The notes beneath the pieces were generated by a model that saw nothing but the letters and a program-made list of their open reading frames with translations, was not told the DNA's origin and did not search any database. From Bacteroidetes bacterium GWF2_49_14 (GTDB lineage: Bacteria; Bacteroidota; Bacteroidia; Bacteroidales; UBA12481): 64,000 bases of DNA. This document shows positions 32,933 through 43,544 of this stretch, piece by piece. A program made the translations under genes and the position numbers. Positions within the stretch are counted from its first letter, which is position 1; every line of letters starts with the position of its first letter. The DNA is taken from assembly GCA_001769295.1 (NCBI GenBank), contig MEOR01000081.1:40633-104632 (forward strand). Direction: 5' to 3'.

Positions 32933-33520
32933 ATGGGAAGGGTTAACGTGGGAGACTTAGTAAGGTTTGTTGATGAGATGGGCGAGGGGAGGGTAGTCAG
33001 GTTGATTTCCGAAAGCATCGCCGAGGTGAAGACCAATGATGGGTGGGTTTTACCTGCAAATGTAAGGAACCTGGTGGTTATACCTGAACCCGGCAAAGAG
33101 CCGTCAAGGGTTGAAACACTCATTTCAGAAGTTATCTTCCGGCAGGTTGAGCATGAAAAGGAAGTGACAAATCTTACTCTTAATAAGCCTCCTGTTGCCA
33201 AGTCCTCCAAAGTTAAGTCTCCTGCCAGGGAGATAGATCTGCATATCAATAAAATAGCGGATAGTGTGGTTGGATTGACCAATACAGAGATTCTTGGTAT
33301 TCAGATGGAATTGTTCCGCCGTGAATTGAACCGGGCCATACGGGATAACGAAAGCGAAATTATCTTTATTCATGGAATTGGTAACGGGACCCTCAAAGGG
33401 GAATTAAGAAGGGCAGCAGATCGTGACTTTAGCTGGTGCTCACAGGAAGATGCTTCATTTAAGGAATATGGATTCGGTGCTACACGGATCAGGATTCCGC
33501 AGAACAAACCTCAATATTAA
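32933..33520 (+). CDS. Smr-domain protein (MutS2-like small nuclease domain)
   Basis: 195 aa. C-terminal EIDLHINKI...IIFIHGIGNGTLKGELRR matches the Smr domain pattern. Confidence 0.7.
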   Translation: MGRVNVGDLVRFVDEMGEGRVVRLISESIAEVKTNDGWVLPANVRNLVVIPEPGKEPSRVETLISEVIFRQVEHEKEVTNLTLNKPPVAKSSKVKSPAREIDLHINKIADSVVGLTNTEILGIQMELFRRELNRAIRDNESEIIFIHGIGNGTLKGELRRAADRDFSWCSQEDASFKEYGFGATRIRIPQNKPQY

Positions 33521-33530
33521 CTACTTTTGA

Positions 33531-33888
33531 GCCGGCAGCAGACCGTTCTATCGCTGGTCCGTGAAAGCGGACGAGAGGAAAGTCCGGGCAACGCAGAGCG
33601 CCATGCTTCCTAACGGGAAGGTGCCGAGAGGCACAGTAGTGTAACAGAAAACAACCGTCCCGGATTACGGGATAAGGGTGAAAAGGCGGGGTAAGAGCCC
33701 ACCAGTCCGTATGGTGACATTCGGAGTTGTACACCTCATGGGTTGAAAGGCCATGTATACCGGCAATTAAGGGCTGCTCGCCCGATGTCGGGGGGTAGGT
33801 CGTTTGAGTAAACGGGCAACCGGTTACCTAGATAAATGATAGAATTCCGGCAACGGAAACAGAACCCGGCTTATAGGTCTGCTGCTTT
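33531..33888 (+). ncRNA. rnpB: RNase P RNA, bacterial type A
   Basis: Universal motifs GAGGAAAGTCCGGGC (P4 5' strand), ACAGAAAACAACCG, AAGGGTGAAA..GCGGGGTAAGAGCCCACC and ACAGAACCCGGCTTAT (P4 3' strand). P1 pairing is gcagcagacc (33535..33544) with ggtctgctgc (33876..33885). Ends are approximate. Confidence 0.9.
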
Positions 33889-34040
33889 TTTATCCTCGTT
33901 TTTTAAACGTTCATCAAATTGTTTTAAACTTTCACTTAACTAAGCCGAAATGAATTGGTTATGCCCGGCTTTTTTTTTATTTTTGAAATGACTTAGAAAC
34001 AAGAGTGTTAAGAATAAAATATTTGACGTTCATAAAAAAG

Positions 34041-34088
34041 TTTCAAAATTGGGGTTACCTTTTTATAAAGAACAGGATCAACAGATGG
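34041..34088 (+). promoter_or_regulatory. Shared regulatory block, copy 1 (upstream of and running into the sigma-factor start codon)
   Basis: TTTCAAAATTG (34041..34051) plus a 36-nt block GGTTACCTTTTTATAAAGAACAGGATCAACAGATGG (34053..34088). The block is 27/36 identical at identical spacing to 38966..39001 upstream of the peptide gene. Confidence 0.45.
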
Positions 34089-34660
34089 TGCATTACACCG
34101 TTGAAGCCATCCTCGAGGGGCTGAAAAACAGTGACAATAGTGTACTTGAGTTTGTCTACAGGAAGTATTTTCCGATCGTAAGGTTCTTTGTCATAAAAAA
34201 CAGCGGAACGGATGAGGATGCAAAGGATATTTTCCAGGAAGCAATGATCCTCATGTATAAAAGGCTGAAAGATGGTACTCTTGATTTAACCTGTGCCTTC
34301 AAAACCTATCTCTACTCAGTATGCCGCATACTCTGGATGAGACATCTTGAAAGGAGACAGATCAAAACAGACGACCTATCGGACAATCAGGTTTTCATAG
34401 ATATTGAAGACCAGATTGAAGATCAGGTTACTGAGCAGGAGAGATTTCGTTTGTACCAGAAGCATTTTCAGACGCTTCACAAAGATTGTCAGGAAATCTT
34501 ACGACTCTTCCTGAAGAAAGTTCCGCTTAAGGAGATTGCCCAGCTGGTTAATATTAAAAGTGACAAATACCTGAAGAAAAGAAAGTTTGAATGTAAGGAG
34601 ACTTTGACTAAGCGAATACAAAATGACCCTGATTATAAACGATTAAGAAATGATAGTTGA
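34085..34660 (+). CDS. ECF-like sigma-70 family RNA polymerase sigma factor
   Basis: ORF 34049..34660 starts at TTG. ATG 34085 (MVHYTVEAILEGL) is preferred because the upstream 36 nt recur non-codingly at 38966. Region 2 is DAKDIFQEAMILMYKRL...FKTYLYSVCRILWMRHLERR. Region 4 is CQEILRLFLKKVPLKEIAQLVNIKSDKYLKKRKFECKETL. Confidence 0.8.
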   Translation: MVHYTVEAILEGLKNSDNSVLEFVYRKYFPIVRFFVIKNSGTDEDAKDIFQEAMILMYKRLKDGTLDLTCAFKTYLYSVCRILWMRHLERRQIKTDDLSDNQVFIDIEDQIEDQVTEQERFRLYQKHFQTLHKDCQEILRLFLKKVPLKEIAQLVNIKSDKYLKKRKFECKETLTKRIQNDPDYKRLRNDS

Positions 34661-35780
34661 TATAAGTTTATCAGAATTGTTCGACCGGTACCTCGAAGAT
34701 GACCTCAACATCCTCGACAGGCAGGAAATCGAACTTCGGCTAGCTCAGGATCCGGCTTTTGCCAATCGGTTTAAGCTCCACAAAGAGATTGATCAGGCTG
34801 TGATGGAGAGCGAAATAATGCAATTCCGGAAACAGCTTGAAATGATCCAGACCGATAATCCCGATCTTGTTAAAGACAGTCCTATGGAAGTTGCGAGGTT
34901 TTTCGAACCCGAAATTGACCGTGCGATCCTGGAAGAAGATGTAATGAGCCTGCGAAATCAATTGAGCAGGATTCATGCTTCCATAATCGATGATGTTGAC
35001 GCTTCCGAGATTCCTGGTTATGCAATTATTGAGGAAGCAATTATAAATCAGGATGCTGTGGTTCTGCAGGCTGAGCTGAAGGAGTTTACTAATTCACGCT
35101 TGTCGGGAGCCTTGCCGGAAGAGCTTGAAGGAATTAAACTCAGCAGGGAAATTGACCAGGCTCTTCTTGAGGAGGATGTCATGGAACTAAGAGAGAAACT
35201 CACCGCCATTGGAGACCAGGTAACAGGAAAAACTCTTGTTGTCAGTTCCAGACGGAAAATTATAACCACAATTACTTCCATTGCGGCTGTCCTAACCTTT
35301 CTGATCTCCGGCACCATAGTACTGATGCAGAATCCCACTATTTCCGGTAACCAGAGATTGTCCGGTATGTTTGAGAATTACGGAAGCATCAGTGAATCAC
35401 GTGGACCGGTGGATGCAGTAAACAAAATAACAAACACTGCAGTTCACCTGTATAATAATAAACAATATCCATTGGCCGGTCCACTGTTTGATGTCTACCT
35501 TGAACAGAATGATTCTGATGATGAAGTGGTCAAAGTTTATGCCGGTCACTGTGCCCTGGAAACCAATGATCCTGACAAAGGGATACGTTATCTTTCAAGT
35601 ATTACCTCAGAAGCCCCGGCCTATATAGATGCTCAGTGGTACCTGGCTGGCTGTTATCTGAGAAAGGATCAACCGGCTGTAGCAATTGACATAATTGAAA
35701 AACTAAGTAAAAACGATAAAATAGACAGGTATCCTTATCCAATCGAAAAACTGCTGAAAAAACTTCGCAAGGTCGAATAA
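34650..35780 (+). CDS. Putative anti-sigma factor: single-pass membrane protein with four internal repeats and a TPR-like C-terminal domain
   Basis: 376 aa. 11-nt overlap with the sigma gene. The N-terminus LFDRYLEDDLNILDRQEIELRLAQDPAFANRF resembles anti-sigma N-terminal domains. Four copies of EID-A-L-EEDVM-LR--L--I lie at aa 46-66, 88-108, 126-146 and 167-187. TM helix at about aa 204-226. The C-terminus holds 2-3 TPR-like helix pairs. Confidence 0.5.
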   Translation: MIVDISLSELFDRYLEDDLNILDRQEIELRLAQDPAFANRFKLHKEIDQAVMESEIMQFRKQLEMIQTDNPDLVKDSPMEVARFFEPEIDRAILEEDVMSLRNQLSRIHASIIDDVDASEIPGYAIIEEAIINQDAVVLQAELKEFTNSRLSGALPEELEGIKLSREIDQALLEEDVMELREKLTAIGDQVTGKTLVVSSRRKIITTITSIAAVLTFLISGTIVLMQNPTISGNQRLSGMFENYGSISESRGPVDAVNKITNTAVHLYNNKQYPLAGPLFDVYLEQNDSDDEVVKVYAGHCALETNDPDKGIRYLSSITSEAPAYIDAQWYLAGCYLRKDQPAVAIDIIEKLSKNDKIDRYPYPIEKLLKKLRKVE

Positions 35781-35784
35781 GCGG

Positions 35785-35861
35785 CTTACAGTTTCCAACC
35801 CGTTCCCGCTGATTTCCTTTTTAAGTTTTAAAGTGCAGTTCTGAAGTTTCTTACAGTTTCC
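35785..35861. repeat. Direct repeat CTTACAGTTTCC (two copies, with extended similarity) in the convergent intergenic spacer
   Basis: Exact 12-mers at 35785..35796 and 35850..35861. Flanks are similar (aACCcGTtCC versus gACCGTCC). Confidence 0.5.
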
Positions 35862-35876
35862 GACCGTCCGTTTCCA

Positions 35877-38825
35877 TTATATCCCCGCTTTTGGCGGGGA
35901 TTTCTTTTTCCATTGTGTAACAAAAAGACCAAAGAGACTTACTGGAATCAGTAATAACCATAAAATCGCATAAGATTTAGGTTTCGGGAAATCCAAAGTC
36001 AAGTTCTGCCCCACAGGTAAAACTGCCGCCCAGAACCGAGGATGAGCTTGCAGCTGATCAGCTGCCGCGAGGTACGCTAACTTACTGTTCCTTAATGCAG
36101 CTGCAATAGGCTGGTCCTTAATCAAATTGCTATAAAATCCGGACATAATCTTCTCGCTTGATTTGTCATCCACCGTCCATAGTGTCATAATTATTACCGG
36201 GCAGCCAGCAAATAGAAAAGCTCGCCCAAGGCTCATAATCCCTTCGCCCGCAGCCAATTCCCCGGATCCGGTTTCGCAAGCGGACAAAACCACCAGGTTG
36301 GAATTCAGGGACAGATTATAAATCTCATGGCTGAACAGGCAACCATCCTCCGTTTTGTCCGAGCCCGGTGTGAAAACCAGGCATGAGTTCATGGGCTTTT
36401 CCCGGTCGGTTAAGGTATGCATTGCCAAATGCAGAATGGTATAATCTGAGCAAATGTTTTTAAAGGTTCCCTCCCTGGCTCCATTTTTTATGAGCAGCCT
36501 TCCCCCGATTGATTCCCGGGCGGATCTGGCCTCTTTCAGTGTTCCACTCAGCTGTGGCAGCGCATCCCCCTTGTTTCTCAGGAACTCTATTGATTGTATT
36601 CTGGCAGGTTTATAAACAGGCGCAACTGCCAGGATAGACCTGGTGGCCTCCTTCTTATGAACAGGATGGAATTGATATAAAGTTGCGGTAAACCCGTATG
36701 AGACTATATGTTCCCTTATGAGATACTCATAACTGTGGAAGTCATGTTTCACGGCCTTACCCGATGGTTTTATCAAGGCATCAAATGAAATGTAATTAAG
36801 CAATCCATCAGGAATTATTATCAATTCCTTATTCTCAATCATTCCTTCAAATGGTTGGATAAGAATACTATAAAGGCCGGATGAGGCTTCATAAAAGGAC
36901 CTCATCTCACTGCCATTATAGGTGGAATACCCACCTTTCATGTAGTTGATTAAAAAGTCAGTTCTTGCCATGGTCAGGCTATCCAGTGGAATCATGAAAA
37001 CCTGGCTTTCCGGTCGGCTCACCGCAATGCAAATGATAGCTTCAGCGGTCATGGAATACTGAAGCATGACTTCATTTTCGCGCAAGGACGCTGCCGTCTG
37101 ATCCAGGCTGATGACCGACCGGTCGAATTTGGAACGATAATAGTCCGGATACTTTGTCTCATAAGTTCTTATCAGGCTATCTTTCTTAATGTTAAGCCGA
37201 AAACTCTCAGCCTCAAGCTCCTTTATCAATTCTATATTTTTAGCGCTCGAGGCGGACTGCCTTGCAAGATAGCCCTGGACTTCGGATAGCTTGATATCAA
37301 TTTCTTTTTCAAGGGACAGATCCTCGGCGAGAATGATTCCTGATTTTGTTTCACTGTCGCTCATTGCCCTCCATAGTCCTGCCGATTTGGATATTTCGAT
37401 GAACTCGAAAAGGTTTTTGAGATCATCTCTGTCGAGGGTCCGTAAATAGAGGGTATATGCTACGCTGATCATCTCATCGAAAGAGCTTTCCTGCCTTCTG
37501 CTCAACTCAATCTGGCTTGAAGACTGCAGAAGTGTTCCTCGCGTTGAATCTATCAGGTTAGCTGTTGCGGCATAGTTTCTCATAGCAAGCCGGATATAAT
37601 CGATTTGGCCACTTTCTTCGCCCATATCTCTGTAAATACGAGATGTAAGAAGCAACAGGTTAATCAGATCCAGCGTATTCAGGCTTCTGATATTTTCCGG
37701 AGCATTCTCAATGTCTGCATCGCCAGGACCGGTTGCAATAAGTTTGAGAACCTCCCTTGTTCTTAATAATGCTTCTGAATAATTTCCTGTGGATCTAAGG
37801 AGATCTCCTTCAAGAAGTTTAGTCTCAACCAAGAGGTCAAGCGGTGGGTTAGCCTGCCCTTCGATTATCCGGGCCATCGAGGCCAACTCCGCAAGAGCTT
37901 TAAGTTCATCTTTATCAGCCAGTTGAATAAGTTGCGCTTTATTAATCATGGCCAGGAACCTAATCCGATCGTCAGGCTCAGCATCGGCCCTTTTATTCAA
38001 CACAATATCAAGAACTTCGCGTGCTTCAACAAAACGATTCAATTCAATCAGCGAATTGGAAAGGTTAGTATAAACCATGTCCTCATCGGTGATATTGAAT
38101 TCCTTAATCATTTCAATACTCTTATAAAAAGCCTCGATGGCTGCTTCATGATTAAAAAGGTTTTGGTAAACCAATCCCTTGTTATTCAGTAGTTTGGCTT
38201 TGTTGATGTTAGCCTTTTGACTCAATGTGCTATCCTTTATACAATCATTAAATATTAACATTGCCTGCTGCAAATACTCCAGTGCGCTATTGTATTCCCC
38301 GGCCTGTTTCCGCACGGTGGCTAAATTCAGGTACAATGAACCAATACCTAACTTGTCTGGCCGTGTCATTGACCTCAGCACAGCTATGGCCTTAAGATAG
38401 GTACTTTGACTTTCCGCAAGCCGGGAAATATCCTTGAGGAGTACTCCGGTGTTGTTTAAGGCTCTGTACATCCAATCCAGGTCATCATCCGGTTTGCCAG
38501 CAAAATCGACCGACTCAATCCATTCAATTAATACAGGCAAGTCTTTAGTATTTAGAAATCTATTATTGTAACGACTTATAACGTAGGCAATTATAACTTC
38601 AGTGTGGAAGTCCTGGTCGGGGCTCTGCAAGTATTTCACCAAGGGTTCAATGATTGGTTTCACCTTTTCTTCAGGCAAATTTTTAATCATATCCAGAATC
38701 TCATTGGCTCGGTTTTGATCGATTGCCTGGTAAGGATTGACGGACTGACAATGTCCGGAAGCCGACAACAAAATCAGGCTTATCAGCATTCCAACTGCAA
38801 TATTTTGAAAACTGTTTCTATTCAT
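35877..38825 (-). CDS. TPR-repeat CHAT-domain (caspase-like) protease, exported, with a C-terminal membrane anchor
   Basis: 982 aa. Signal peptide MNRNSFQNIAVGMLISLILLSASGHCQ. About 450 aa of TPR-like repeats (YLNLATVRKQAGEYNSALEYLQQA, LNNKGLVYQNLFNHEAAIEAFYKS and others). CHAT domain with ILHLAMHT (His) and NLVVLSACETGSGE (Cys). C-terminal TM YAILWLLLIPVSLFGLFVTQW followed by KKKSPPKAGI. Confidence 0.85.
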   Translation of the reverse strand: MNRNSFQNIAVGMLISLILLSASGHCQSVNPYQAIDQNRANEILDMIKNLPEEKVKPIIEPLVKYLQSPDQDFHTEVIIAYVISRYNNRFLNTKDLPVLIEWIESVDFAGKPDDDLDWMYRALNNTGVLLKDISRLAESQSTYLKAIAVLRSMTRPDKLGIGSLYLNLATVRKQAGEYNSALEYLQQAMLIFNDCIKDSTLSQKANINKAKLLNNKGLVYQNLFNHEAAIEAFYKSIEMIKEFNITDEDMVYTNLSNSLIELNRFVEAREVLDIVLNKRADAEPDDRIRFLAMINKAQLIQLADKDELKALAELASMARIIEGQANPPLDLLVETKLLEGDLLRSTGNYSEALLRTREVLKLIATGPGDADIENAPENIRSLNTLDLINLLLLTSRIYRDMGEESGQIDYIRLAMRNYAATANLIDSTRGTLLQSSSQIELSRRQESSFDEMISVAYTLYLRTLDRDDLKNLFEFIEISKSAGLWRAMSDSETKSGIILAEDLSLEKEIDIKLSEVQGYLARQSASSAKNIELIKELEAESFRLNIKKDSLIRTYETKYPDYYRSKFDRSVISLDQTAASLRENEVMLQYSMTAEAIICIAVSRPESQVFMIPLDSLTMARTDFLINYMKGGYSTYNGSEMRSFYEASSGLYSILIQPFEGMIENKELIIIPDGLLNYISFDALIKPSGKAVKHDFHSYEYLIREHIVSYGFTATLYQFHPVHKKEATRSILAVAPVYKPARIQSIEFLRNKGDALPQLSGTLKEARSARESIGGRLLIKNGAREGTFKNICSDYTILHLAMHTLTDREKPMNSCLVFTPGSDKTEDGCLFSHEIYNLSLNSNLVVLSACETGSGELAAGEGIMSLGRAFLFAGCPVIIMTLWTVDDKSSEKIMSGFYSNLIKDQPIAAALRNSKLAYLAAADQLQAHPRFWAAVLPVGQNLTLDFPKPKSYAILWLLLIPVSLFGLFVTQWKKKSPPKAGI
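35882..35909 (+). terminator. Rho-independent terminator of the sigma/anti-sigma operon, overlapping the last codons of the convergent CHAT gene
   Basis: tccccgc (35882..35888) / ttttg / gcgggga (35894..35900), followed by tttcttttt. Confidence 0.55.
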
Positions 38826-38890
38826 ATGGGAAAGTAAATAATTGCCGCATGAATATAGAAAGAAAGACAGGTCAAGAGACGATCTTCAGA

Positions 38891-38914
38891 ATTATACAAA
38901 TGTTTTTGTATAAT
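38891..38914. promoter_or_regulatory. Perfect 10-bp inverted repeat (operator-like) in the divergent CHAT / peptide intergenic region
   Basis: ATTATACAAA-tgtt-TTTGTATAAT at 38891..38914, flanked by direct TTCAGAA heptamers (38885..38891 and 38922..38928). Confidence 0.4.
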
Positions 38915-38942
38915 ACAGATATTCAGAAGATTAGCGAAATAT

Positions 38943-39001
38943 TTTCAAAATTGTATAGAAAACGAGGTTACCTTTTTAAGAAAGGAGGGATTAATAGATG
39001 G
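38943..39001 (+). promoter_or_regulatory. Shared regulatory block, copy 2 (upstream of the double-glycine peptide gene)
   Basis: TTTCAAAATTG (38943..38953), 12 nt of intervening sequence versus 1 nt in copy 1 (an 11-nt difference), then GGTTACCTTTTTAAGAAAGGAGGGATTAATAGATGG (38966..39001). Its ATG (38998) opens only a 5-codon mini-ORF (METVS*). Confidence 0.45.
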
Positions 39002-39036
39002 AAACTGTAAGTTAAAAACTTCTAAAATTCAAAGAA

Positions 39037-39168
39037 ATGGAACGGTTCAATCTCTCTTCGCTTGTTGCTGCTGCTCTCGCAGTTGATGAAATGATCAATG
39101 TTCGTGGTGGTGATGGTCCTGTAACCCCGCCAGTTAAAAAGGGCGAAGAAAGCGACATCATTCTTTAG
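39037..39168 (+). CDS. Double-glycine-leader precursor peptide (43 aa), predicted substrate of the adjacent C39 ABC exporter
   Basis: Not in the ORF track (<60 aa). Manual translation: MERFNLSSLVAAALAVDEMINVRGG|DGPVTPPVKKGEESDIIL*. The leader fits the GG-leader consensus (Gly -1/-2, Val -4, Met -7, Glu -8, Leu -12). It lies 97 nt upstream of the peptidase-domain ABC transporter, on the same strand. Confidence 0.65.
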   Translation: MERFNLSSLVAAALAVDEMINVRGGDGPVTPPVKKGEESDIIL

Positions 39169-39198
39169 GACAACGTTCCCAGCCTGGTTTCTTGTTTA

Positions 39199-39220
39199 CG
39201 GCAATAATCACTGATTGCCG
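39199..39220 (+). promoter_or_regulatory. Intercistronic hairpin between the peptide gene and the exporter (possible attenuator / mRNA-stabilising stem)
   Basis: cggcaat (39199..39205) / 8-nt loop / attgccg (39214..39220). No strong T-tract follows. Confidence 0.3.
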
Positions 39221-39264
39221 ACAGTTATTATTATGTATCTTTCGCTGGCCTAAACGCGGTCGGA

Positions 39265-41454
39265 ATGCCTTCATTAACCTATACCCGACAACTCGATGCG
39301 AAAGATTGCGGTCCTGCCTGTTTACGGATGATCGCTGGTTATTACGGCCAAAAATACTCCCTCCAATTTTTACGGGAAAGATCCTTTATCACCCGTCAAG
39401 GTGTAAGTTTACTTGGTATCAGCGACGCGGCAGAGTCAATCGGCTTTTCAACCCTTGGCGTTCGTCTCACCTGGGAACAACTGCTTAATGAGGCCCCCAA
39501 ACCTAGCATTATCCATTGGAACCAAAACCATTTTATCGTTCTGCAAAAAATCGGTGCGCGAAAAGTTCACGTTGCGGATCCGGCTCTTGGTATTTTGAAG
39601 TATTCGATCAAGGAGTTTAAAAAAGGCTGGATTTCAGCTGTCCATGAAGGGAATGAGGTTGGTTTGTGCCTCTTGCTAGAACCCACGCCTGAGTTTTATA
39701 AGATTGAGGGTGAACCTCAAAAACGGAACTCATTCCGATTTTTGCTGGAGTATTTCCGGCCACACAAGAAATACCTTGTCCAGCTTGTTAGCGGTATGCT
39801 GGTAGGATCGGTCATTTTACTGATTCTTCCCTTCCTGACCCAATCTGTTGTGGATATCGGAATTAGCAATCAGGATATGGGATTCATCTACCTTGTCCTT
39901 ATTGCTCAGTTGGTTTTAATTGCGGGAAGAACCAGTGTTGAGTTTATTCGATCCTGGATTCTTCTGCACATCAGTACAAGGATTAATATCGCACTAATAT
40001 CAGATTACCTGGTCAAATTGATGAGGCTTCCCACTTCATTTTTTGATACCAAAATGACCGGTGATATTTTGCAGAGGATAGGCGATCATACCCGCATTGA
40101 AACTTTCCTTACTCAATCAACCCTTAATGTTCTGTTCTCAATATTTAACCTGTTTGTTTTCAGTATTGTATTAGCAATTTATAATGCAAAGATCTTACTC
40201 TTGTTTTTAATTGGCAGTTTGTTGTATTTACTTTGGATCAGTTTGTTTCTTCGTAAGCGACGTGAACTTGACAACCGAAGGTTTATCCAGTTGTCAGAAA
40301 ATCAGAACAGCATTATTCAGATTGTATCTGGCATGCAGGAGATCAAGCTTAATACCTGTGAGCAGCAGAAGCGCTGGGACTGGGAGTTCATTCAGGCCAA
40401 GATATTCAGAATCAGGGTTAAGAGTCTTGCCTTGGTGCAATACCAACAGGTGGGTTCGGTGGTAATTAATGAAACAAAGAATGTGCTGATCGCATTTCTG
40501 TCGGCAAAGGCTGTTATTGAAGGCCAGATGTCGCTTGGTATTATGTTTGCAATCCAGTTTATAGTGGGGCAGATGAACAGCCCCATTGACCAGCTTATTA
40601 ACTTCTTTCATGCGGCACAAGATGCAAAGATCAGTCTTGAGAGGTTAGCTGAAGTACATGATCAACCTGTCGATGGAGTAGGCAGGGAGAGTAAGGTTGA
40701 CGAATTGCCGGCCAATATCAGCCTTAAAATTTCCGGATTGGTTTTTCAGTATGAAGGCCCGCATTCTCCAAGGGTGGTAGATGACATAACATTTGATGTA
40801 CCCGAAAACAAGGTAACTGCCATTGTCGGTTCGAGTGGAAGCGGAAAAACCACCCTTATTAAAATCTTGCTGGGATTATACCGGCCAGTTTACGGCGAGG
40901 TCCAGCTAGGCAATAGTTCCCTGGAGAATTACAATCAAAGGATTTATCGAAGCAAATGTGGGGCAGTTTTGCAAGACGGTTATTTGTTTTCAGACACGAT
41001 TGCAAAAAACATAGCATTGAGTGATGAATCGATTGATCCTGGAAAACTGGCCTTTGCTGCTGAAAAAGCTAATATCTTGGAGTTTATCAGGAGTTTTCCC
41101 CTTGGATTCAATTCGCGGATAGGGGTTGATGGACATGGTATAAGTCAGGGACAGAAGCAGCGGTTGCTGATTGCACGTGCGATTTACAAGGATCCCAGGC
41201 TTATTTTCTTTGATGAGGCCACGAATTCCCTGGATGCAAATAATGAAAGGATCATTATGGAAAACCTGGCAGAATTTTTTAAAGGCAGGACGGTTGTCAT
41301 TGTGGCGCACAGGCTTAGCACAGTTAAAAATGCTGATCAGATATTGGTTATGGAGAAGGGCAAGATAATTGAAACCGGAAAGCATGAGGAATTAGTGCGG
41401 TATCAGGGAGCCTACTATAATCTTGTTAAAAATCAGCTCGAATTAGGAATATAG
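39265..41454 (+). CDS. Peptidase-domain-containing ABC transporter (PCAT; C39 peptidase + TMD + NBD)
   Basis: 729 aa. C39 domain TRQLDAKDCGPACLRMIAGYYG (Gln/Cys), IIHWNQNHFIVLQK (His), VHVADPA (Asp). Six TM segments. NBD with GSSGSGKTT (Walker A), ISQGQKQRLLIARA (signature) and LIFFDEATNSLD (Walker B). Confidence 0.9.
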   Translation: MPSLTYTRQLDAKDCGPACLRMIAGYYGQKYSLQFLRERSFITRQGVSLLGISDAAESIGFSTLGVRLTWEQLLNEAPKPSIIHWNQNHFIVLQKIGARKVHVADPALGILKYSIKEFKKGWISAVHEGNEVGLCLLLEPTPEFYKIEGEPQKRNSFRFLLEYFRPHKKYLVQLVSGMLVGSVILLILPFLTQSVVDIGISNQDMGFIYLVLIAQLVLIAGRTSVEFIRSWILLHISTRINIALISDYLVKLMRLPTSFFDTKMTGDILQRIGDHTRIETFLTQSTLNVLFSIFNLFVFSIVLAIYNAKILLLFLIGSLLYLLWISLFLRKRRELDNRRFIQLSENQNSIIQIVSGMQEIKLNTCEQQKRWDWEFIQAKIFRIRVKSLALVQYQQVGSVVINETKNVLIAFLSAKAVIEGQMSLGIMFAIQFIVGQMNSPIDQLINFFHAAQDAKISLERLAEVHDQPVDGVGRESKVDELPANISLKISGLVFQYEGPHSPRVVDDITFDVPENKVTAIVGSSGSGKTTLIKILLGLYRPVYGEVQLGNSSLENYNQRIYRSKCGAVLQDGYLFSDTIAKNIALSDESIDPGKLAFAAEKANILEFIRSFPLGFNSRIGVDGHGISQGQKQRLLIARAIYKDPRLIFFDEATNSLDANNERIIMENLAEFFKGRTVVIVAHRLSTVKNADQILVMEKGKIIETGKHEELVRYQGAYYNLVKNQLELGI

Positions 41455-41455
41455 C

Positions 41456-41980
41456 ATGACTCACAGTGATCCTCAAATCGAACTGCGCCAGGAAGAACTC
41501 CGGGAGATACTCGGAATTGTTCCGCCATGGATTGTAAGGTGGGGGACTGTTCTGATAGCCATGGTGATACTTACCCTGTTAATTGGGGCAGCCTGGTTTC
41601 GATATCCCGACCGGATCAGCAGCCAGGTTGTCCTGACCGCTTCGAATCCAATTAAAGGGGAACTTTTTTTGTCAGTCAAAGATGCCGGAAAAGTGAAGAT
41701 TGGGAATCGCGTTGTTTTACATATTGATAATTATCCCTACATGCAATACGGAATGGTAAAGGGAACGGTTGAGCAAATCTCATTATGGCCTGAGGCAGAA
41801 TACTATAGGGTCGAGATAAGCCTGCCAGAAGGTATGAAATCGACCTATAAAAAAGAGCTGGTGTTTTCCAAGAATATGACTGGCCAGGCGCAGATTATTA
41901 CCGATAAGATGAGCCTTCTGGTTAGAATACTTGATCCTGTTAAAGGCCTTATTCGCAGAAAGAATAACCAGGATGTTTAA
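41456..41980 (+). CDS. Short HlyD-family (membrane fusion protein-like) protein: TM anchor plus beta-barrel domain only
   Basis: 174 aa. Starts 1 nt after the PCAT stop. N-terminal TM WGTVLIAMVILTLLIGAAWF. VVLHIDNYPYMQYGMVKGTVEQISL...MTGQAQIITDKMSLLVRIL resembles the C-terminal barrel of HlyD proteins. No lipoyl or coiled-coil hairpin region. Confidence 0.6.
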   Translation: MTHSDPQIELRQEELREILGIVPPWIVRWGTVLIAMVILTLLIGAAWFRYPDRISSQVVLTASNPIKGELFLSVKDAGKVKIGNRVVLHIDNYPYMQYGMVKGTVEQISLWPEAEYYRVEISLPEGMKSTYKKELVFSKNMTGQAQIITDKMSLLVRILDPVKGLIRRKNNQDV

Positions 41981-42704: not shown

Positions 42705-43544
42705 TTAACTCTGATCCAGTGTTTTCGTGGCTCTGTAAATGGCCAAAAGATTGAATAGCAGTTTTTCGGCCTGTGACAAAGGAAGCATATTTGAACCGTC
42801 TGAGAGGGCCTGCGAAGGGTTTGGATGTGTTTCCATAAAAATACCATCAACACCGGAAGCGATACCGGCTCTTGCTATGGTTTCTATCATTTGAGGATTA
42901 CCCCCGGTTATTCCTCCGGGTTGATTGGGAGCTTGCAAACTATGAGTAATATCCAGAACCACAGGATATCCCCATGATTTCATGATGGGGATTCCGCGAA
43001 AATCAACGACCAGGTCTCCATAACCAAAAGTCGATCCCCTCTCAGTAAGAAAAATACGGGAGTTTCCCGTTTCCACAATCTTTTCCACTCCAAATCTCAT
43101 CGCCTCAGCTGAAAGAAACTGGCCTTTTTTAAGATTAACCGGTTTTCCGGTTTGTGCTGCAACCTGTATGAGTTCAGTCTGGCGGCACAAGAATGCCGGG
43201 ATTTGTAAAACATCAGCAAACCTGGCGACGAAATCTACCTCTTTTGTCTCATGCACATCTGTGAGGACCGGCAGTCCGGTATAGCGTTTAACTTCGTCCA
43301 GCAGATTCAGGGCTTCCGAATCTCCGATTCCCTTGAATGAATCAAGCCGGGTCCGGTTTGCCTTACGATAGCTTGCTTTAAAGATTAGAGGTATCTTCAA
43401 CCGGTTACAGATTTCTTTCAGTTTCTCTGCGGTCTGGAAGAGTGTTTCGCGATTTTCTACAACGCAGGGACCTGCAATGAGTAGAAAACCCGGGTCCTGA
43501 GCAGGCTGAATACCGGGAATGGTATGAATAAAGTCGTTCTTCAT
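42705..43544 (-). CDS. kdsA: 3-deoxy-8-phosphooctulonate (KDO-8-P) synthase
   Basis: 279 aa. LIAGPCVVE, FKASYRKANRTRLDSFKG, LTDVHE, IPAFLCRQT, VNLKKGQF, VLDITHS. Confidence 0.9.
   Translation of the reverse strand: MKNDFIHTIPGIQPAQDPGFLLIAGPCVVENRETLFQTAEKLKEICNRLKIPLIFKASYRKANRTRLDSFKGIGDSEALNLLDEVKRYTGLPVLTDVHETKEVDFVARFADVLQIPAFLCRQTELIQVAAQTGKPVNLKKGQFLSAEAMRFGVEKIVETGNSRIFLTERGSTFGYGDLVVDFRGIPIMKSWGYPVVLDITHSLQAPNQPGGITGGNPQMIETIARAGIASGVDGIFMETHPNPSQALSDGSNMLPLSQAEKLLFNLLAIYRATKTLDQS

Follow-up and report, generated by a model that had tools for sequence, protein, structure and literature searches.

The DNA analysed here, called the window, comprises 64,000 nucleotides (64 kb) of Bacteroidetes bacterium GWF2_49_14 (contig MEOR01000081.1, positions 40,633 to 104,632). 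Between rnpB and kdsA, it carries a block of genes that we regard, with moderate confidence, as a conserved signalling module of uncultured Bacteroidota, in which a sigma factor of the extracytoplasmic function (ECF) type, a membrane anti-sigma factor, and a periplasmic TPR-CHAT protease appear to be combined with a double-glycine (GG) leader peptide expressed from a sigma-dependent promoter (Table 1). The module as such and the control of the peptide by the sigma factor are well supported, and feedback of the peptide on the protease/anti-sigma pair is plausible. The arrangement suggests peptide signalling that is read out by proteolysis. Proteolytically controlled ECF signalling is known; the part that appears to be new here is a split CHAT protease with a linked GG peptide. 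All six genes that an earlier note on this DNA had placed in the block were present in the open reading frame (ORF) list, with the 11-nt overlap of the sigma and anti-sigma genes, and profile searches bore out its domain calls, namely ECF sigma factor, CHAT with TPR, C39/ABC, and the C-terminal part of HlyD.

The complete block, consisting of the genes for the sigma factor, anti-sigma factor, TPR-CHAT protease, GG peptide, peptidase-containing ATP-binding cassette (ABC) transporter (PCAT), and a shortened HlyD-type adaptor (mini-HlyD), was found at one chromosomal site in four genomes, designated clade A: the window, L001 (GCA_964512915.1), L090, whose contig ends inside the PCAT gene, and L110/L111. 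The site is flanked by queA-side genes, smr, and rnpB on one side and by a LolA-like gene, kdsA, and mgsA on the other. Within clade A, the sigma factors were 75–100% identical, and identity fell to about 41–43% for the CHAT proteins and to 34% for the mini-HlyD proteins. The clade A peptides formed four clusters, all ending in KGEE[SG]DIIL and having a proline run of variable length. In the sister clade B (L009, L093, L096, L098, L099, L108, L109, and L114), the sigma factor was about 47% identical, and the gene order was different: the sigma gene converges with the CHAT gene, and on the other side of the CHAT gene, a promoter-like motif is followed by one to three GG-peptide genes and the anti-sigma gene (505–512 aa). 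L108, L109, and L114 were reached from the peptide sequence alone, and CHAT and anti-sigma genes stood beside the peptide gene in 3/3 cases. The genes had been proposed to form one functional unit, which agrees with the finding that two clades, although they differ in gene order, both combine the sigma/anti-sigma/TPR-CHAT trio with a GG peptide.

The clade B peptide family comprised 117 clusters at 90% identity. Its leader, MKTLFANNETKNFDSFSFDVLT.EEL.LVKGG, was near-invariant, and its core of about 10 aa, K-x-x-D-x-Y-x-x-L-D/N, was variable at the x positions; in about 10 clusters, the precursor contained the core twice in tandem. Among six genes, 9 of the 32 leader codons differed only synonymously. 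L108 had two paralogs with different leaders and one core that was kept through synonymous changes, and the three tandem peptide genes of L114 shared one core. Because of these synonymous leader changes and same-core paralogs, the peptide genes are considered to be protein-coding, with the mature peptide under selection. The gene content of the clade B loci also varied. L108 (7649-14722) has three tandem copies of a cassette of motif, two peptide genes, and anti-sigma gene (509 aa), the anti-sigma copies being 100% identical to one another; the first cassette had a degenerate motif and one peptide gene, and ISL3-family transposase genes flanked the array. L098 contained two motif-peptide-anti-sigma cassettes. 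Incomplete clade B loci were also observed: L091 (4510-7050) had the sigma gene, the motif, and the anti-sigma gene with neither CHAT nor a recognisable peptide gene, L095 (10001-10585) had the sigma gene alone, and L109 had CHAT, peptide, and anti-sigma genes with no sigma gene within 10 kb.

The wider family was surveyed in the 10-kb neighbourhoods of 80 genome loci anchored on related CHAT proteins. A related sigma gene was found within 10 kb in 30 of the 80 loci and a detectable anti-sigma homolog in 14; a GG peptide was found only in L009, and a C39 PCAT in none. In 88 CHAT-anchored loci, GG-leader ORFs occurred only in L009, apart from L001 (clade A) and the lanthipeptide precursors of L005; of the metagenome loci to which CHAT homologs had led, the only one with a PCAT was L005, where it was part of the lanthipeptide cluster. 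By these comparisons, the sigma/anti-sigma/TPR-CHAT trio occurs widely in Bacteroidota, two sister clades have the GG peptide in addition, and a PCAT and mini-HlyD next to the trio are specific to clade A. The earlier note had expected the trio to be linked to pairs of GG peptide and PCAT; this held for the peptide in two clades and failed for the PCAT beyond clade A.

The sigma and peptide genes are connected by a shared sequence block, which had been noticed before and which was found as two exact copies in 64 kb, conserved in clades A and B. The exact 11-mer GGTTACCTTTT occurs twice in the window, both times within these copies, and the pattern GGTTAC-N16-GGAWNAA likewise has two exact matches, one before each gene. 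Twenty instances were aligned, 18 from clades A and B and two from wider-family sigma genes (L016 and L061). In 18/18 clade A/B instances, GGTTACCTTT(T) was followed by 11 variable positions and then GGA[TA][TCA]AA, the spacer was constant in length and free to vary in sequence, and an A-T was conserved six bases beyond block 2. L016 and L061 kept block 1 but not block 2. Because the spacer varies in sequence but not in length, the block is promoter-like. The shape of the motif, GGTTAC-N16-GGA(T/A), is that of an ECF promoter, for which the canonical spacing is AAC-N16-CGT, the same geometry. An Rfam search over 33880-39300 gave no credible RNA family match, and a known RNA was rejected as the identity of the block on this ground and on that of the fixed-length, variable-sequence spacer.

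The position of the motif was also conserved. Copy 1 was identical in L001 and conserved in L089, L090, and L110, always 32 nt from the start codon. Copy 2 was likewise conserved ahead of the peptide gene of L001, L090, and L110, and the motif also preceded the peptide genes of clade B, where it always lay 81–82 nt before the first peptide start codon. Each clade A genome had the motif ahead of both the sigma gene and the peptide gene. From motif copy 2 to the peptide gene, the DNA was 93% identical to L001 and the peptide gene itself 98.5%, compared with 74% immediately upstream of the motif and a genome background of about 87%. Related sigma genes of Flavobacteriaceae and Saprospiraceae carried (T)GTTACC(C/T) about 50 nt upstream of their start codons, with an AT-rich block such as TTTAAAT about 17 nt further on, and this element fits autoregulation of the sigma gene across the wider family. 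Copy 1 is likely to be the autoregulated ECF promoter of the sigma/anti-sigma operon, and copy 2 is likely to be a sigma-dependent promoter of the peptide/PCAT/HlyD operon. There is strong comparative evidence that the sigma factor recognises GGTTAC-N16-GGAT and drives both operons.

Two further features of the motif were observed. In L090 (14849-15025), an ATG within the motif shares the reading frame of the peptide gene, so that the resulting ORF has 58 aa (METVLIIIKIKQ plus the precursor); the same ATG opens a 5-codon ORF (METVS and a stop) in the window and L001. In several Flavobacteriaceae, a second match resembling GTTACC-N17-TTTAAT lies on the + strand, antisense inside the - strand sigma genes (L070 4863, L076 5040, L086 4869, L074 3857, and L067 2927), and may be a by-product of coding conservation or an antisense promoter.

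Two unrelated systems lying side by side, with the shared sequence as a chance repeat, would be in keeping with a PCAT linkage confined to one genus-level lineage. However, a second clade of different gene order also combines the trio with the motif and a GG peptide, the 11-mer occurs in 64 kb only at the two expected places, and the motif regions were 93–96% identical between genomes vs a background of about 87%. Coincidental adjacency is therefore already contradicted by the comparative data, and we consider it highly improbable.

The sigma factor matched TIGR02937 (sigma70-ECF) with 63.1 bits (cut-off, 42.9) over residues 22-174 and Pfam Sigma70_r2 with 27.9 bits (cut-off, 24), and it was thus assigned to the ECF (group 4) sigma factors by profiles above their cut-offs. 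The protein encoded next to it contains, as the earlier note had described, four repeats of EID-A-L-EEDVM-LR-L-I, which start at residues 46, 88, 126, and 167 in the N-terminal, cytoplasmic part. Hydropathy analysis gave one transmembrane (TM) segment, 208-226; the basic RRK just N-terminal of it suggests an N-in/C-out orientation. The C-terminus matched TPR_19 and is predicted to form a periplasmic TPR-like domain of about 150 aa, for which the AlphaFold2 (AF2) model had block-mean predicted local distance difference test (pLDDT) values of 75–94 over residues 261-376. The protein thus has a single TM helix and a predicted extracytoplasmic C-terminal domain, as anti-sigma factors of this type do. 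The family alignment showed an N-terminal YLEGxL...FE..L..D pattern, usual for the class I anti-sigma domain (ASD), together with the TM segment and the C-terminal TPR region. An R-[SG] about 25–35 residues after the TM segment was conserved across the family and is a candidate cleavage site. In the translation, residues 1-207 contain no cysteine, so that a CHCC motif is not possible in the cytoplasmic region. Based on synteny, topology, and the family pattern, the protein is the putative cognate anti-sigma factor.

The 982-aa protein matched CHAT (PF12770) with 172.8 bits (E = 1.4e-50), as well as TPR_12, TPR_1, TPR_2, and TPR_8. It consists of a signal-like N-terminus, a helical/TPR array of about 550 aa, the CHAT domain (649-940), and a TM segment (952-970) followed by KKKSPPK. 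CHAT is a member of the caspase/legumain/separase clan. The His and Cys that had been proposed as catalytic, His803 and Cys850, were invariant in 12 CHAT homologs and aligned with H862 and C907 of DdvA, whose structures (8rot/8rw5) were the best sequence match among PDB structures. The AF2 model (pLDDT 81.6; predicted template modelling score 0.71) showed a long helical array, a caspase-like domain, and a C-terminal helix, and Foldseek against PDB returned DdvA first, then Csx29, then separase. By these data, the protein is a TPR-CHAT protein with an above-threshold CHAT domain, a His/Cys dyad, and an N-terminal TPR superhelix preceding a caspase-like fold. Because of the signal-like N-terminus and the C-terminal TM segment with its basic tail, the bulk of the protease is placed outside the cytoplasm, so that it is predicted to share the periplasm with the last ~150 residues of the anti-sigma factor. 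That the protease and the anti-sigma outer domain lie in one compartment had been assumed previously and agrees with the predicted topologies.

DdvA of Myxococcus xanthus is a transmembrane anti-sigma factor fused to a periplasmic TPR-CHAT protein and paired with the ECF sigma factor DdvS; its catalytic dyad is H862/C907, and signal-induced CHAT cleavage of a membrane-adjacent linker, followed by RseP cleavage, has been proposed for it (PMC11506125; PDB 8rot/8rw5). As in DdvS/DdvA, an ECF sigma factor here stands under a membrane anti-sigma factor and a periplasmic TPR-CHAT protein with a His/Cys dyad, and the proposed logic of CHAT cleavage followed by intramembrane proteolysis carries over directly. 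Unlike in DdvA, the protease is encoded apart from the anti-sigma factor and brings a signal sequence and a C-terminal anchor of its own, the two genes are on opposite strands, and the anti-sigma factor has a small outer TPR domain and no zinc-binding CHCC motif, so that the single polypeptide of DdvA is not found. The regulon also differs: it is a peptide-export operon here and CBASS (cyclic-oligonucleotide-based antiphage signalling system)/CRISPR there, DdvA has no associated peptide, and the hosts are Bacteroidota and Myxococcota, respectively. The locus is a split version of the DdvA architecture. To our knowledge, DdvA is the only characterised TPR-CHAT anti-sigma factor. Given that the trio is conserved, that its protease and anti-sigma outer domain are predicted to share a compartment, and that DdvA sets a precedent, we infer that the CHAT enzyme is an extracytoplasmic protease that starts the degradation of the anti-sigma factor.

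DdvA is a closer precedent than the type III-E systems with which the locus had been compared. In craspase, Cas7-11/gRAMP with the TPR-CHAT protease Csx29 cleaves Csx30 and so controls RpoE, and the coupling of a TPR-CHAT protease to release of an ECF-type sigma factor by proteolysis is common to both, being proposed in the present case. However, craspase is cytoplasmic, RNA-guided, and bound to Cas7-11, whereas the protease here is predicted to be periplasmic. The Csx29 model NF041237 gave 17.6 bits, far under its cut-off of 300, and no repeat array was found in the window, whose genes outside the block were not scanned for Cas7-11 and Csx30/31. Of the previous statement that cas genes and a CRISPR array are missing, the second half held for the entire 64 kb, and the first half applies to the block proteins, which had no cas-type PADLOC match.

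The peptide precursor of 43 aa consists of the leader MERFNLSSLVAAALAVDEMINVRGG and the core DGPVTPPVKKGEESDIIL, with a predicted mature length of 18 aa. In the leader, LAVDEMINVRGG has L-12, E-8, M-7, V-4, and GG, i.e., the double-glycine consensus, and the PCAT gene begins 97 nt downstream. Profile searches with curated peptide models gave no match to the precursor. The peptide was identical in L001, and the gene differed by two synonymous changes. The PCAT matched Peptidase_C39 (PF03412; 2.2e-33), ABC_membrane (PF00664), and ABC_tran (PF00005). Its C39 triad had been reported as intact, and Cys15, His, and Asp indeed aligned with the triads of the PCAT1 and ComA structures, Cys15 with the Cys that is mutated to Ala in 7n87; the protein thus has the characteristics of PCAT/AMS (ABC-transporter maturation and secretion) exporters.

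The 174-aa protein matched TIGR01843 only at positions 309-412 of 422 (45.8 bits; cut-off, 208.65). It has an N-terminal TM segment and a C-terminal beta-barrel region and is not a full HlyD adaptor: compared with the 446-aa L005 homolog, about 250 central residues with the lipoyl and alpha-hairpin parts are missing. The N-terminal TM segment was aligned by eye from the translations, since MAFFT had misplaced it. Because its length is conserved (171 aa in L001; 174 aa in L110 at 34% identity) and the ratio of nonsynonymous to synonymous substitutions (dN/dS) was 0.23, mini-HlyD is not considered a decaying remnant. All block genes were under purifying selection, with dN/dS of 0.02–0.23 (against L001, 0.02 for the sigma factor; 0.07 for the PCAT). 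In a homolog search of 1.8 billion proteins, most of the best 150 representatives examined were adaptors of 420–450 aa matched in two separate stretches, and at least 8 of them were proteins of 169–182 aa with end-to-end matches. In type I secretion, the adaptor hairpin contacts the outer-membrane channel. Because mini-HlyD lacks the hairpin that would reach this channel, the peptide is probably released mainly into the periplasm. Taken together, the triad, the leader, and the shortened adaptor point to maturation of the peptide by the PCAT with release into the periplasm, and the shortened HlyD argues for such release over classical quorum sensing.

A different wiring of the same export genes was observed in L112 (4091-11873), where a PCAT, a 179-aa mini-HlyD, and a GG-leader peptide (core GVAYEWVLNEDGEYVLVIKRGVKGSNH) adjoin a divergent histidine kinase and OmpR-type response regulator pair, and a second kinase gene follows downstream. 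The contig is Bacteroidota-like, and the arrangement resembles ComCDE; the PCAT/mini-HlyD/peptide unit can therefore be wired to a classical peptide-sensing system.

The following mechanism is proposed for the module. The CHAT protease would act as the site-1 protease and cut the anti-sigma factor on the periplasmic side; intramembrane proteolysis would come next and free the sigma factor, as proposed for the fused DdvA. The free sigma factor would transcribe its own operon and the peptide operon, and the PCAT would remove the leader so that the 18-aa peptide is released mainly into the periplasm. There, the peptide would act back on the protease/anti-sigma pair, its partner being the TPR array of CHAT or the TPR domain of the anti-sigma factor. 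The linkage in two clades, the clade B operon, the same-core paralogs, and the short hydrophilic cores are consistent with such an action. For the sign of the feedback, we tentatively favour activation, which would make a self-reinforcing switch. In its fullest form, which is possible but uncertain, the module would be a pheromone circuit with the protease as the receptor: the PCAT-processed peptide binds the CHAT TPR array, the protease destroys the anti-sigma factor, and the sigma factor amplifies the peptide.

The module was compared with other systems that share parts of this logic. As in ComC/ComAB, a GG-leader peptide with a conserved leader and variable core lies beside a PCAT with an intact triad, and the peptide gene stands behind a promoter of the pathway it may feed. 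Unlike in ComC/ComAB, the reader is a sigma/anti-sigma/protease set instead of the histidine kinase of a two-component system, the phylum is Gram-negative, and, with the shortened adaptor, the peptide may stay periplasmic. As in RRNPP systems, the locus combines TPR repeats with a short exported peptide, but the RRNPP receptors are cytoplasmic transcription factors or phosphatases of Firmicutes with Sec/PptAB export and Opp import, whereas both TPR proteins here are predicted to be extracytoplasmic and neither has a helix-turn-helix. RseA-DegS-RseP, RsiW-PrsW, and RsiV share with the module a single-pass anti-sigma factor with an outer domain, here encoded beside a dedicated extracytoplasmic protease, and a sigma gene that appears to be autoregulated is common to site-1/site-2 systems. 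They differ from it in that the candidate site-1 protease here is a caspase-like CHAT protein with a long TPR array and in that an exported peptide is within the regulon.

Several observations weigh against the proposed reading. Transcription from motif copy 1 is predicted to begin on the first base of the start codon of the sigma gene or directly beside it, which would make the sigma mRNA entirely or almost leaderless; this geometry is awkward, with a start codon that is ATG in the window but TTG in L089 and L110. The clade B sigma gene is not preceded by the motif, and within 10 kb of the clade B loci, no C39 exporter was found. Residues 1-200 of the anti-sigma factor gave no Pfam or NCBIfam match, and its N-terminal 255 residues had a pLDDT below 50 in the single-sequence AF2 model, which is unreliable there. 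Most sigma/anti-sigma/CHAT trios in Bacteroidota have no GG peptide, and the trio must therefore sense something without it. Finally, the peptide is identical in the window and L001, and the N-terminal TPR region of CHAT (69% amino acid identity between the two) is the fastest-evolving part of the locus, which is not what would be expected of a dedicated peptide receptor. Domain divergence in clade B did not single out a receptor either, since the anti-sigma and CHAT domains both evolve fast (five loci).

The frequency of peptide-free trios also bears on the possibility that CHAT has nothing to do with the anti-sigma factor and matures or degrades the exported peptide, with the anti-sigma TPR domain as the peptide receptor. 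The periplasmic TPR-like domain of the anti-sigma factor is indeed predicted with confidence, and the peptide and anti-sigma genes make up a single cassette, of which L108 has three copies. However, because trios without a peptide are common (related sigma gene in 30/80 CHAT loci; GG peptide in L009 only), CHAT would have a role that is tied to the sigma/anti-sigma pair alone, and the fused DdvA architecture joins CHAT directly to the anti-sigma factor (PMC11506125). This explanation is considered quite unlikely.

Another possibility, which we consider somewhat unlikely, is that the peptide is solely an output: the trio would sense an unrelated envelope or danger signal and turn on a secreted bacteriocin-like or other effector without feedback. 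Related trios without a peptide adjoin varied cargo (a Tc-toxin and TIR/SIR2 genes in L007, a beta-helix protein in L003, and PKD/DUF7849 proteins in Flavobacteriaceae), a related CHAT gene in L005 lies beside a class I lanthipeptide cluster, the peptides are named "bacteriocin(-like)" in some sources, and DdvS/DdvA controls a defence island (PMC11506125). The peptides themselves fit this possibility less well: the cores, of 10–18 aa, are both acidic and hydrophilic, conserved Cys pairs and an immunity gene are missing, and a near-invariant leader, together with a variable core and same-core paralogs, is more reminiscent of a matched signal. Moreover, mini-HlyD is without the segment by which adaptors normally connect to the outer-membrane channel, and in clade B, a single motif is followed by the peptide genes and, directly adjoining them in the same orientation, the anti-sigma gene, and no exporter gene lies close by.

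The co-expression with the anti-sigma factor in clade B, which is another negative element, would also suit a peptide that acts as a negative regulator, i.e., a substrate or pseudosubstrate that occupies CHAT, as securin does separase, and shuts the response off after induction. The amplified gene dosage suits a stoichiometric inhibitor, and both core families contain an acidic stretch that ends in Asp and is followed by a hydrophobic or small residue (KGEE[SG]D-IIL; K-x-x-D-x-Y), which could be a caspase-like site. The roughly 10 kinds of precursor with tandem cores would need a second cut. On the other hand, the resemblance to a caspase site is a pattern match made by eye, and some tandem cores join at P|K instead of D/N|K. 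We regard inhibition by the peptide as unlikely and retain activation as the favoured sign.

The sigma/anti-sigma/CHAT trio was also found with other genes. In L065 (3365-11140), two conserved genes lie between the sigma/anti-sigma pair and the CHAT gene; they encode a 327-aa lipoprotein-like protein without a Pfam match and a 650-aa PKD/DUF7619/DUF7849 protein. The same arrangement was seen in other Flavobacteriaceae (L059, L061, L074-L076, L080, L085, and L086), and these loci are, by gene content, a different elaboration of the trio. In the soil contig L007 (1-8215 and 14868-20453), the trio adjoins Tc-toxin (TcA/TcB/SpvB-like) and TIR/SIR2 genes, which suggests that related trios control toxin or defence cargo. 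L005 (4384-17608) encodes a TPR-CHAT relative (28% identical) with a signal peptide and no C-terminal anchor beside the class I lanthipeptide cluster, which contains two Cys/Thr-rich GG-leader precursors, a PCAT, a 446-aa HlyD, and LanB/LanC; no sigma gene was nearby.

Peptide cell signalling is textbook knowledge for Gram-positive bacteria and is essentially undescribed for Bacteroidota. If the proposal is correct, the module would be the first dedicated peptide signalling system described in this phylum, a protease-receptor pheromone circuit would be a new way to read a peptide without a kinase or a cytoplasmic TPR regulator, and more than 100 pherotype-like peptide variants would be present in metagenomes. 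Bacterial CHAT/caspase-like proteases have been tied to regulation only recently, through craspase and DdvA, and the module links both. Because the protease and the anti-sigma factor are separate in this split DdvA-like design, the cleavage step is directly testable, and the module supplies a defined candidate ligand or substrate together with a large natural peptide library for specificity studies. A candidate promoter and regulon are gained for an unstudied Bacteroidota ECF sigma group, the shortened HlyD hints that PCATs can deliver peptides into the periplasm instead of outside the cell, and the orthogonal sigma/anti-sigma/protease/peptide parts could serve circuit design. In full-text literature searches, which turned up only the DdvA and type III papers, no link between CHAT proteases and GG peptides and no description of sigma/anti-sigma/CHAT trios in Bacteroidota was found; searches on PCAT signalling peptides in Bacteroidetes found no account of the present system. 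CHAT is not mentioned in the main text of the ECF re-classification paper.

Table 1. Features of the block between rnpB and kdsA and of its borders (positions in the window)
Feature	Position	Strand	Basis or remark
rnpB	33535-33889		Rfam RF00010, 263 bits
Shared motif copy 1, GGTTACCTTTTTATAAAGAACAGGATCAACAGATGG	34053-34088	+	Extends into the start codon of the sigma gene (34085)
ECF-type sigma factor, 191 aa	34085-34660	+	Profile matches
Single-pass anti-sigma-like protein, 376 aa	34650-35780	+	11-nt overlap with the sigma gene
Terminator-like hairpin ATCCCCGCTTTTGGCGGGGAT, then T-run	35881-35901	+	9-bp stem, 6 GC pairs
TPR-CHAT (caspase/separase-like) protease, predicted to be exported and membrane-anchored, 982 aa	35877-38825	-	Profiles, predicted topology
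Shared motif copy 2, GGTTACCTTTTTAAGAAAGGAGGGATTAATAGATGG	38966-39001	+	Before the peptide/PCAT/HlyD operon
Double-glycine-leader peptide precursor, 43 aa	39037-39168	+	
Small hairpin CGGCAAT...ATTGCCG between peptide and PCAT genes	39199-39220	+	Conserved in L001
PCAT (C39 peptidase fused to ABC exporter), 729 aa	39265-41454	+	Profiles, triad alignment
Shortened HlyD-type adaptor, 174 aa	41456-41980	+	C-terminal HlyD match
LolA-like exported protein, 241 aa	41977-42702	-	LolA_like match under Pfam cut-off
kdsA	42705-43544		Assigned via PF00793 in the L001 ortholog

The housekeeping anchors named in the earlier note were borne out, rnpB by an Rfam match and kdsA by way of its L001 ortholog (Table 1), and its inventory of the block was right for the genes listed and lacked one, the LolA-like gene. 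This gene adjoins the block in all clade A genomes and is not beside the clade B modules, and its membership in the module is uncertain. The block had also been described as AT-rich. The dip is real, the GC content of the block being the lowest among 111 segments of 8.8 kb, but it is small (0.426 vs 0.455 for the window). A recent island was ruled out by the smallness of this dip and by the synteny of the block across four genomes. The 64-kb window contained no tandem or CRISPR-like array. PADLOC gave no defence-model match for the sigma, anti-sigma, CHAT, peptide, and HlyD proteins, and for the PCAT it gave generic ABC/P-loop ATPase matches to the nucleotide-binding domain only; a defence system was thus rejected as the identity of the block for want of PADLOC support from the former five proteins.

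The terminator-like hairpin lies 3' of the anti-sigma gene and overlaps the 3' end of the convergent CHAT gene. The small hairpin between the peptide and PCAT genes may be an attenuator, for which the evidence is weak; such a role was rejected on the fold of the intergenic region, which was no better than that of shuffled sequence (z = -0.32). Upstream of the block, the spacer between rnpB and the sigma promoter (33890-34052) was 96% identical to L001 vs the genome background of about 87%, and it contains, at about 33942-33978, a hairpin with a T-run, probably the terminator of rnpB. A 195-aa Smr-domain protein is encoded upstream of rnpB (32933-33520); its Pfam Smr match was just under the cut-off, and it is kept in L001 and L110.

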